This document shows, piece after piece, positions 1,783 through 53,260 of a DNA stretch of 64,000 nucleotides. The notes under the pieces were generated by a model, which worked only from the letters and a program-made list of their open reading frames with translations, did not search any database and was not told where the DNA came from. The stretch's first letter is position 1, and every line of letters begins with the position of its first letter. A program made the position numbers and the translations under genes. Origin of the DNA: Candidatus Poribacteria bacterium (lineage in GTDB: Bacteria > Poribacteria > WGA-4E > WGA-3G); NCBI GenBank assembly GCA_965214095.1, contig OZ243938.1, forward strand, positions 2,432,001-2,496,000. Reading direction: 5' to 3'.

Positions 1783-1857
1783 GTTGATTAGGAAGTTTAC
1801 AGGTTTATTTCGTTTTAAGAAATTATCAACATTAGGATTTACTGACAATTAATACAC

Positions 1858-2088
1858 AAAGCGGTAGGTTCGGTTTCCTAACCGATCCATAGGCGTCAAT
1901 TTAGTGTAAATTAGGCGTTTTCCCCAGGACGGTAGGTGCGGTTTCCTAACCGCACGGAACCTATGCGAGAACCTCTATAAAGGTATTTGGCACAAAGCCG
2001 GTTCGGTTAGGAAACCGAACCTACCGGTACTTGGAAGGATGCTAAATTGACGCTTATGGTTCGGTTTCCTAACCGATCCTACCGCTTT
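1858..2088. mobile_element. REP-like palindrome interrupted by a 169-bp miniature TIR element (1889-2057) with a 22-bp direct duplication
   Basis: GGTTCGGTTTCCTAACCGATCC at 1867-1888 and 2058-2079; TIRs ATAGGCGTCAATTTAG / CTAAATTGACGCTTAT (15/16); two internal GTAG-footed hairpins in inverted orientation. Confidence 0.75.
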
Positions 2089-2189
2089 AGCATTTAGTAA
2101 GAGTTAAGAAAATCATAAAACTAAATAACCCTAGAAAATTTATCCTCAAATTGAAAGTTATGGGTATAGGATAACCTAACCTCCGATTA

Positions 2190-53064: not shown

Positions 53065-53260
53065 TGTAGTAAAAACCATAATTATTTACACACGACGGTA
53101 GGTTCGGTTTCCTAACCGAACCTTATGCGTCAATTTAGCGTCCTTCCAAGTGCCGGTAGGTTCGGTTTCCTAACCGAACCGGTGTTTGTTCAGTATCATA
53201 GATGCGGTTAGGAAACCGCATCTACCGAGGAGTGTGCACCTATTTTTGCATTTCACTATA
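53065..53260. mobile_element. Composite miniature element with three REP hairpins; contains half of the 1889-2057 element
   Basis: TGTAGT...ACTATA ends; 53123-53182 is the near reverse complement of 1998-2057. Confidence 0.65.

Follow-up and report, generated by a model that had tools for sequence, protein, structure and literature searches.

The window analysed here is a 64,000-nt stretch of the genome of Candidatus Poribacteria bacterium, a member of the sponge-symbiont Poribacteria. Near its beginning, at positions 1858 to 2088, one hairpin-forming 20-mer of the REP type is present twice in direct orientation, with a short element ending in inverted repeats between the two copies. The locus therefore raises the question of what this element is and how the hairpin on its flanks came to be doubled. 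We conclude, with a probability of roughly 90%, that window positions 1888-2058 are a MITE mobilised by an IS231-like insertion sequence (IS) of the IS4 family, and that the REP hairpin was duplicated through a target stagger of about 20 bp.

A MITE between two copies of a REP hairpin

The element is located in a 466-bp spacer, with minus-strand ORFs (1118-1723 and 2190-2750) on either side. The parts of the locus are as follows.

1858-1867, plus strand: left outer stem of the target REP, AAAGCGGTAG, which includes the GTAG signature and pairs with 2079-2088
1868-1887, plus strand: first copy of the target-site duplication, the inner hairpin of the REP (8-bp stem, 4-nt loop), GTTCGGTTTCCTAACCGATC
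1888-2058, plus strand: 171-bp MITE, probable non-autonomous partner of a 1488-bp IS4-family element
1888-1904, plus strand: left terminal inverted repeat of the MITE, CATAGGCGTCAATTTAG, with the same sequence as the right IS end
1936-1955, plus strand: internal REP core 1 of the MITE, with CGGTAG just before it
2001-2020, plus strand: internal REP core 2 of the MITE, inverted, with CTACCG just after it
2042-2058, minus strand: right terminal inverted repeat of the MITE, CATAAGCGTCAATTTAG on the minus strand
2059-2078, plus strand: second copy of the target-site duplication, again GTTCGGTTTCCTAACCGATC
2079-2088, plus strand: right outer stem of the target REP, CTACCGCTTT

An initial annotation of this DNA, made from its sequence without database searches, had described a miniature element with terminal inverted repeats inserted into a REP hairpin, and the locus bears this out. 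The 17-nt terminal inverted repeats (CATAGGCGTCAATTTAG compared with reverse-complemented CATAAGCGTCAATTTAG) match at 16 of 17 positions, and the outer stems at 1858-1867 and 2079-2088 pair around the duplicated core. The two additional REP-type hairpins that had been placed inside the insert are also present, as the cores at 1936-1955 and 2001-2020, and together they make up a REPIN-like doublet. The exact 22-bp target duplication that had been proposed was right about the exact doubling of the hairpin but not about its length, which is 20 bp, as the terminal C and G belong to the element. This boundary was placed at the CA..TG termini of the element, and copies in unique DNA (described below) fix the length at 20 bp.

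The core that flanks the MITE is a variant, with GATC where the rest of the family has GAAC. It occurs exactly twice in the 5.2-Mb genome, at 1868-1887 and 2059-2078, and the reversed pattern, counted as a control, has no occurrence genome-wide. Because the variant is private to these flanks, the two 20-mers derive from one another rather than from two separate REPs. The 12-mer GCGTCAATTTAG is found three times in the window versus 0.37 expected (one of 100 shuffles reached three), and it has 162 matches across the genome when up to one mismatch is allowed.

The ends belong to an IS4-family insertion sequence

A census of the end motif over the whole genome gave 183 matches to the 17-mer at up to three mismatches. 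Among the elements found in this census are 13 intact ISs of 1487-1488 bp that have the same ends as the MITE, and these supply the autonomous element for which a genome search had been suggested. One of the 13 copies begins 91 bp past the end of the window. Each IS consists of a single ORF of 439 aa, open in 13/13 copies, between ends of 17 nt. The copies are so alike (0-26 differences per 1488 nt, median 3, five identical) that the IS family must have expanded recently.

The 439-aa transposase matches the NCBIfam model for IS4 family transposases (NF033592) at 195.9 bits, where the cut-off is 115, and Pfam DDE_Tnp_1 (PF01609) at 80.5 bits, where the cut-off is 23. A sequence search of solved structures returned no match at E <= 1, and therefore a fold search was needed. 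For the structure model, built on 44 homologues (pLDDT 85.1, pTM 0.84), the five top-ranked structures are all Tn5 transposase (1muh_A, E 5e-9). Residues D119, D191 and E324 are invariant in 44/44 members of the clade to which the enzyme belongs, and their spacings of 72 and 133 fall within the D(60-110)D(100-150)E pattern of the IS4 family. The single ORF and the short terminal inverted repeats are likewise typical of that family. From the YREK motif, R320, E324 and K331 are also invariant in 44/44 clade members, but the complete Y(2)R(3)E(6)K is lacking: the tyrosine position, 317, holds A in 26 members, V in 13, Y in 3, T in 1 and I in 1. It is A in the transposase of the study genome and L in the Herpetosiphon protein discussed below.

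These assignments bear on two known kinds of system to which the duplication of an entire palindromic unit had initially been likened. One is Cas1/casposase-type integration; casposons make long duplications. The resemblance is confined to the doubling of a whole palindrome, whereas the autonomous element with these ends carries one ORF only, for a DDE transposase of the IS4 family with a Tn5 fold. Cas1 itself is represented in the genome by a single match, a fragment of 116 aa that covers positions 160-258 of the 283 in the profile, and no terminal-repeat match from the 17-mer census lies near it. We regard integration of this type as practically out of the question.

The other is an IS1634/IS1549-like element. 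IS1634 and IS1549 are relatives of the IS4 family with long direct repeats, for which the family survey gives lengths of 8-514 bp that vary between copies (PMC2266710), and the transposase does give a weak match to the IS1634 model. However, that match reaches 29.2 bits against a cut-off of 100, compared to 195.9 bits for the IS4 model. Furthermore, the duplication is near-constant, with 20 bp in 13/13 IS copies, and the ends fit the IS231 signature (see below). An IS1634-like origin is thus very improbable.

Insertion duplicates 20 bp

Exact 20-bp direct repeats flank 13/13 IS copies, ten of which are inserted in REP cores and three in unique DNA. The genome-wide scoring of flanks for 20-25-bp repeats of REP hairpins, which the initial annotation had put forward as a check, accordingly found such repeats at 10/13 IS copies. 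For the 31 complete MITE copies in the genome (169-173 bp), the duplication is an exact 20 bp in 11 cases, 20 bp with one or two mismatches in 7, 19 bp in 2 and 21 bp in 1; that is, 3 of 21 duplications measure 19 or 21 bp. A clean duplication is missing from the other 10 complete MITEs, of which three are degenerate; the rest lie in tandem-arm arrays or have hybrid flanks. As a control for the caller, we took an IS231C copy annotated on a plasmid of Bacillus thuringiensis, and the result was 11 bp.

Empty sites carry the 20-mer once. For the IS at C1:4400707, a unique site, three genomes of the same genus (G015, G009 and G007) could be aligned, and their flanks are contiguous around one 20-mer; this orthologous empty site sits within a conserved coding region. 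The matches to the two flanks overlap by exactly 20 nt in G009, G007 and two G011 contigs, and by 23 nt in G015 and G039. A 20-mer that was already doubled at the empty orthologous site was looked for at this one IS copy, and the site was not of that kind. For a MITE in unique DNA at C1:5144650, two genomes (G042 and G044) lack the MITE and show its left flank next to a single 20-mer.

Paralogous empty sites point the same way. When the sites were restored in silico, 13 of 33 had an uninterrupted paralogue that was at least 93% identical over the junction; three further matches that overlapped the queried locus were left out of this count. For the IS that lies just beyond the window, the restored site and an uninterrupted paralogue agree at 99% over 108/110 nt.

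Empty-site alleles, another of the proposed checks, therefore exist for the IS at C1:4400707 and the MITE at C1:5144650 but were not found for the window copy, either in relatives or in short-read contigs. A search of 31 related genomes returned no exact empty allele of the copy at 1888-2058. The neighbouring genes of the relatives are ~83% identical to those of the window, and the intergenic regions have diverged. The orthologous intergenic region of one genome (G014) holds a different single hairpin, and two others (G001 and G006) have other neighbours at this locus. In short-read contigs from three runs of the same organism, both filled junctions are present without difference; no joint that skips 1888-2078 was seen in these contigs, which break inside the repeat. 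One low-depth contig from a diverged strain has 32 other letters in place of the whole 370-bp intergenic stretch (1801-2170). Because the empty allele of this particular copy was not found, the case for the window copy rests on the private variant shared by its flanks and on the behaviour of the family.

REP hairpins are a preferred target

The REPs of this genome have the classical layout of GTAG followed by an 8-bp stem with a 4-nt loop, and there are 514 REP cores at up to two substitutions, 358 of them exact. On contig C1, 241 cores have just the left outer stem and 235 just the right one. Cores are arranged there as inverted doublets that resemble REPINs or BIMEs, of which 60 have a 22-bp spacer and 81 a spacer of 45-48 bp. 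The layout of the restored window site, which is an uninterrupted core with both outer stems, occurs just once in this survey of contig C1, at C1:4555722.

Target choice was assessed with the 31 insertions (13 IS, 18 MITE) that have a 20-bp duplication at up to two mismatches. Nineteen of these are in REP-like cores, and all 19 share one register, in which the cut falls directly after GTAG and the duplicated segment is exactly the inner hairpin. The preference for REPs is strong, because the cores (514 x 20 bp) make up only ~0.2% of the genome, and the survival of neutral intergenic insertions also contributes to it. The 12 insertions outside REPs, with both strands pooled, have G as the flanking base in 14/24 ends, G at position 1 in 20/24, T at position 2 in 13/24 and G or T at position 3 in 22/24, which gives a symmetric G-G-T-K end consensus. 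The 20-mers duplicated at these non-REP sites are more palindromic than random ones (3.8 versus 2.5 pairs of 10, resampling P ~0.0015). [quoted passage not shown]

It had initially been proposed that a REP-targeting system copies the REP at each insertion and in this way amplifies REPs. Both the targeting and the amplification are real, but the latter is modest and non-REP sites are duplicated too. An element end adjoins 78 of the 514 REP cores, which would correspond to roughly 39 extra cores from duplication, and every complete MITE brings two cores of its own. The number of REPs is thus raised by the IS/MITE pair, yet the pair is not their main source, and REPs of the GTAG-plus-hairpin type exist independently of the element.

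The abundance of REPs lends some appeal to an explanation without any duplication, in which the element lies between two REPs that were already there or the arrangement was built by a RAYT. Most of the 514 cores are indeed paired, and a truncated RAYT-like gene is present in the genome. However, natural pairs are inverted, with spacers of 22 or 45-48 bp, whereas the window flanks are direct repeats that share a variant found nowhere else in the genome, and the empty orthologous and paralogous sites carry one copy. Examination of five Y1-type transposase genes in the study genome uncovered no RAYT partner for the GTTCGG...CCGAAC REP. Four of them belong to copies of a 1.83-kb IS200/IS605-like element without these REPs, and the fifth, the truncated RAYT-like gene, is located beside a second REP family (GTAG-GTCGGGT...ACCCGAC). 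Moreover, RAYT/IS200-type transposition to our knowledge makes no duplication. There is very little chance that the flanks of the window MITE arose in either of these ways.

The IS lineage of the study genome targets the GTTCGG...CCGAAC REP in register, and a more distant Poribacteria lineage targets the GTCGGGT...ACCCGAC REP. Different IS sublineages thus use different REP families.

An IS231-like lineage with a changed duplication length

According to the survey of the IS4 family, members are marked by a YREK motif that is complete and by the duplication of roughly one helix turn, which amounts to 7-13 bp when all subgroups are taken together (PMC2266710). Table 1 of the survey lists the end signature CAT-------AA--TAA--- and a duplication of 10-12 bp for the IS231 subgroup, and 10-13 bp for IS4 (PMC2266710). 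The left end of the Poribacteria IS, CATAGGCGTCAATTTAAGGA, agrees with the IS231 signature at all 8 fixed positions. Its duplication, with 20 bp in 13/13 IS copies, lies outside the 7-13 bp of the family.

When plasmids were searched with the transposase, Herpetosiphon aurantiacus pHAU01 gave the best match, to an element of the IS4 family (34.8% identity). Among named elements IS231C ranks first (27.8% identity, E 8e-35), ISBth4 comes next, and E. coli IS421 is far weaker. Members of the IS231 subgroup cluster with many pairs at >50% identity, and the 27.8% identity to IS231C places the Poribacteria transposase outside this cluster. Likewise, the subgroup duplicates 10-12 bp at GGG-N5-CCC; the Poribacteria element has kept the symmetric G-rich/C-rich ends, but at a spacing that is ~9 bp longer.

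We used the same caller to determine duplication lengths in relatives. Two Clostridiaceae-type relatives and one from Prolixibacteraceae have 11 bp each (GGGTCAGACCC, GGGTTAGACCC and GATGATTATCC), a further Clostridiaceae copy (L057) has 9 bp, and a Sarcina relative has an ambiguous duplication of 7 bp. The Herpetosiphon pHAU01 element has 19-21 bp, a range from the only full copy on that plasmid. At 41 loci in other Poribacteria MAGs (47-90% identity), the duplication measures 20 bp at 10 loci, 19 bp at 11, 18 bp at 7 and 17 bp at 2, and none was detected at 11, where both ends were found in 8 cases and not in 3. In OZ244616, one IS has 19-bp duplications at REPs with a shorter loop and 20-bp duplications where the loop is 1 nt longer, and the cut position in the stem is unchanged.

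A maximum-likelihood tree was computed from 19 transposases, with IS421 as a long-branched outgroup and the partial ORF L054 (217 aa) left out. A branch with 99/99 support splits the nine long-duplication rows from the four 11-bp rows, and the long-duplication clade forms a separate 99/99 branch beside the IS231C/ISBth4/clostridial group. The element is thereby placed beside IS231 by its ends, its target motif and the tree, and it is an IS4-family lineage whose target stagger roughly doubled. The survey split off IS701, ISH3 and IS1634 because their YREK motif is incomplete and their duplication length deviates (PMC2266710), and by this logic the long-duplication clade would be at least a new subgroup.

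Two features of the transposase vary with duplication length. In the alignment, position 317 is Y in 5/5 relatives that do not belong to the long-duplication clade, namely four with 11-bp duplications and Sarcina with its ambiguous 7 bp. In addition, the clade is without a stretch of 17 aa that Firmicutes members have after the second D, and the Poribacteria transposase is ~40 residues shorter than IS231 transposases. The 17-aa stretch is an imperfect correlate of duplication length, because the Prolixibacteraceae member with 11 bp has only 4 of its residues. Judging from these alignments, the lost YREK tyrosine and the missing stretch between the second D and E are candidate determinants of the longer stagger.

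Our literature search found no report of an IS4-family duplication of ~20 bp, and an ISfinder entry with a long duplication may exist; a search for descriptions of insertion sequences in Poribacteria also found none.

How the stagger might be set

By analogy with Tn5 and IS231, the transposase would act as a dimer on the CATAGGCGTCAATTTA ends. Both 3' ends would be joined to target phosphates ~20 bp apart, and gap repair would then duplicate those 20 bp. The preferred target ends are symmetric, G|G-T-(G/T) ... (A/C)-A-C|C. Each subunit would read one G-G-T/K end, and a REP hairpin would present a perfect, symmetric and suitably spaced pair of such half-sites. In this genome the GTAG-type hairpin (8-bp stem, 4-nt loop) best supplies the preferred ends, so that the whole inner hairpin is duplicated whenever a REP is hit. 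Since the attack points would be ~9 bp, or nearly one helical turn, wider apart than in IS231, they would lie on roughly the same face of the helix. Sister lineages with about two turns versus about one, but with similar ends and a similar target motif, are therefore comparable with respect to strand-transfer spacing in Tn5-type transpososomes. Both the setting of the stagger by a dimer with two half-sites and the protein change that would have lengthened it are inferences.

Alternatively, and with respect to the stagger-setting step only, the spacing may be set by DNA structure: the transposase would act on a REP in extruded form, as hairpin or cruciform, and cut its stem at a constant position, so that the part of the hairpin above the cuts is what becomes duplicated. 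In OZ244616, the difference between 19 and 20 bp tracks loop length while the same stem position is cut, the exact register is shared by 19/19 REP insertions, and the non-REP 20-mers exceed random ones in palindromy (3.8 versus 2.5 of 10, P ~0.0015). This excess, however, is supplied in part by degenerate REPs in the non-REP set, and a variation of 1 bp in either direction is normal for the family, where the survey gives 10-12 bp for IS231 and 10-13 bp for IS4 (PMC2266710). Moreover, exactly 20 bp are also duplicated where three ISs and several MITEs are inserted in unique DNA of weak palindromy, and one unique-site copy has a confirmed empty site inside a gene. We therefore consider a stagger set by structure to be unlikely, although it deserves to be kept in view. 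The flexibility between 19, 20 and 21 bp fits half-site recognition with a tolerance of 1 bp either way and also fits the recognition of an extruded hairpin, whereas the exact 20 bp at weakly palindromic unique sites favours recognition on duplex DNA.

If an extruded hairpin or cruciform were recognised, DDE integration would be guided by structure and would copy an entire foldable REP with every jump, and IS/MITE activity would be tied to how REP families grow and diversify in sponge symbionts. A broader proposal holds that the lineage re-tuned its target capture from one to two helical turns, with the REP hairpin as its landing pad, the duplication tracking loop length and IS sublineages matched to the REP families of their hosts. 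We find this combination doubtful as a whole.

Comparison with known systems

The preferred reading, in which an IS231-like transposase duplicates ~20 bp, is best judged against elements that share part of this behaviour. The IS231 subgroup, with IS231A and IS231C of Bacillus thuringiensis, has a single-ORF DDE transposase, ends with CAT at positions 1-3, AA at 11-12 and TAA at 15-17 (the end of the IS231C copy is CATGCCCATCAACTTAAGAA), symmetric G-rich/C-rich target ends and a preference for palindromic or repeat targets, all of which resemble the Poribacteria element. A tabulated example for IS231A is a duplication of 11 bp at GGGNNNNNCCC (PMC2577343, Table 1, citing Hallet 1994). The two differ in duplication length (20 bp in the study genome and 17-21 bp in the clade versus 10-12 bp in IS231), in hosts (Poribacteria and Herpetosiphon versus the Bacillus cereus group) and in the YREK tyrosine, which is lost in 41/44 members of the long-duplication clade.

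ISs that target REPs are described from five families, and those named are IS1397, ISKpn1, ISPsy8, ISPa11, ISPpu9/10 and the IS4-family ISRm22 (PMC1525189). As in our case, all or nearly all of their copies are reported at one fixed position within the REP (PMC1525189). However, the direct repeats given for them are 0, 2, 3 or 6 bp long and the REP is split (PMC1525189), whereas the Poribacteria element duplicates the whole 20-bp inner hairpin and leaves both copies foldable, with 12/31 insertions outside REPs.

A precedent for a jump in duplication length within one family is provided by the IS1202 family of ~1.5-kb DDE elements, where one subgroup is described with 16-28 bp and a sister subgroup with 3-5 bp (PMC10132070). 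The IS1202 elements have an unrelated, TnsB-like transposase and TGT..ACA ends, and no target sequence was found for the long-duplication subgroup (PMC10132070); the Poribacteria transposase matches the IS4 model and not the IS1202 family. The IS4-family lineage with ~20-bp duplications is a known kind of element with a changed stagger.

Duplication length is used as a defining and mechanistically meaningful trait of transposon families, and here REP hairpins are seen to be copied by an element of the cut-and-paste type. Software for finding ISs and MITEs would probably overlook such elements, or misplace their boundaries, if it allows duplications of no more than ~15 bp.

A MITE made of REPs, and its probable remnants

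The similarity between MITE and IS is limited to the first 17-19 nt, and identities beyond this point are within the range of shuffled sequences. An origin of the MITE as an internal-deletion derivative of the IS was considered and rejected, as there is no similarity past those nucleotides. The body of the MITE is a REP doublet plus two short linkers, and for this reason the element is better called a REP doublet capped by IS ends than a deleted IS. It nevertheless has the properties expected of a MITE of this IS, namely the same terminal repeats, duplication length and target, no coding capacity and an autonomous partner in the genome. MIC231 elements are described as non-autonomous IS231 derivatives that have only the ends in common and are moved in trans (PMC6199540). 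The Poribacteria MITE is likewise probably mobilised in trans by the 1488-bp IS; since the two share just 17-19 nt, this reading draws on ends, duplication length and target.

As the MITE carries its own preferred target, nested insertions are to be expected. A second small repeat in the window is relevant in this respect.

53102-53121, plus strand: first copy of a REP core, in a REP doublet of the family with 22-bp spacers
53122-53159, plus strand: solo 38-bp MITE arm, comprising the terminal repeat CTTATGCGTCAATTTAG, linker and CGGTAG, with no complete element
53160-53179, plus strand: second copy of the REP core, which runs on into the host repeat

The initial annotation had noted that the same terminal repeat follows the same hairpin near 53101. 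This is the case at 53102-53179, although what lies between the two cores is the solo arm and not a complete element. The arm at 53122-53159 would be what was left of an inserted MITE once a deletion had occurred between the direct REP cores. The 58-bp unit of arm and core seen at 53122-53179 is repeated in tandem at C1:2057224-2057398, and a second tandem array of arm and core is present at C1:4990821-4990957 with a period of 66-70 bp. These arrays and the solo arm fit a course of nested insertion followed by deletion between direct repeats, by which IS/MITE activity would explain odd repeat arrays in Poribacteria genomes.

Insertion sites and associated repeats

A full copy of the IS4-family element is located just beyond the end of the window.

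Window coordinate 64091 onward (main chromosome contig C1, 2496091-2497578): complete IS4-family element, 1488 bp

This copy lies in a REP core (the 20-bp inner hairpin after GTAG) and is flanked by an exact 20-bp duplication, and its restored site has an uninterrupted paralogue that is 99% identical (108/110 nt). A diverged strain carries 32 different nucleotides in place of the 370 bp of intergenic DNA at window positions 1801-2170, as seen in one low-depth contig (depth of ~5) from X1, a sequencing run labelled as a viral metagenome.

The window also carries a member of a second small repeat family, in which IS and MITE insertions are frequent. Approximately 60 copies of this family, counted by the 22-bp spacer, are present in the whole genome.

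Window 53066-53250: REP doublet with a 22-bp spacer and ends of the TAGTAAAAACC...-type

Elsewhere on the main chromosome, single MITE arms and one REP core form tandem arrays.

C1 2057224-2057398: tandem array, 58-bp period
C1 4990821-4991128: tandem array, 66- to 70-bp period

When inspected by eye, the outermost ends of the array at 4990821-4991128 resemble a degenerate duplication of ~20 bp. We infer that such arrays arose by nested insertion followed by deletion, which is the sole explanation that we offer. MITE orientation in this genome is divided 6 versus 3, and a weak orientation preference is possible across the 13 IS copies.

Other transposition- and integration-related genes

The following additional genes and elements were located on the main chromosome.

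C1 3183350-3183700 (locus L099, 1453-1803): lone Cas1 fragment, 116 aa
C1 2666075-2666299 (locus L075): RAYT-like Y1 transposase gene, N-terminally truncated, 115-aa frame
C1 81623, 2170036, 2385609 and 4230081 (loci L071-L074): four copies of an IS200/IS605-like element

The Cas1 fragment spans one third of the profile and adjoins a nucleotidyltransferase/HepT-like gene. After the RAYT-like gene comes an inverted doublet that belongs to another REP family (GTAG-GTCGGGTAGAGGCACGA..CCCGAC), which is the target of related IS elements in other Poribacteria. The IS200/IS605-like copies share 98% identity over ~1.83 kb and carry a Y1 transposase frame of 141 aa, and their flanks lack REPs of the type studied here.

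Base composition of a small contig

The main chromosome has a G+C content of 41% and the two smallest contigs have 38-40%, but contig C2 of the same assembly (32,066 bp) has 64%. This contig may represent foreign DNA or a binning contaminant.
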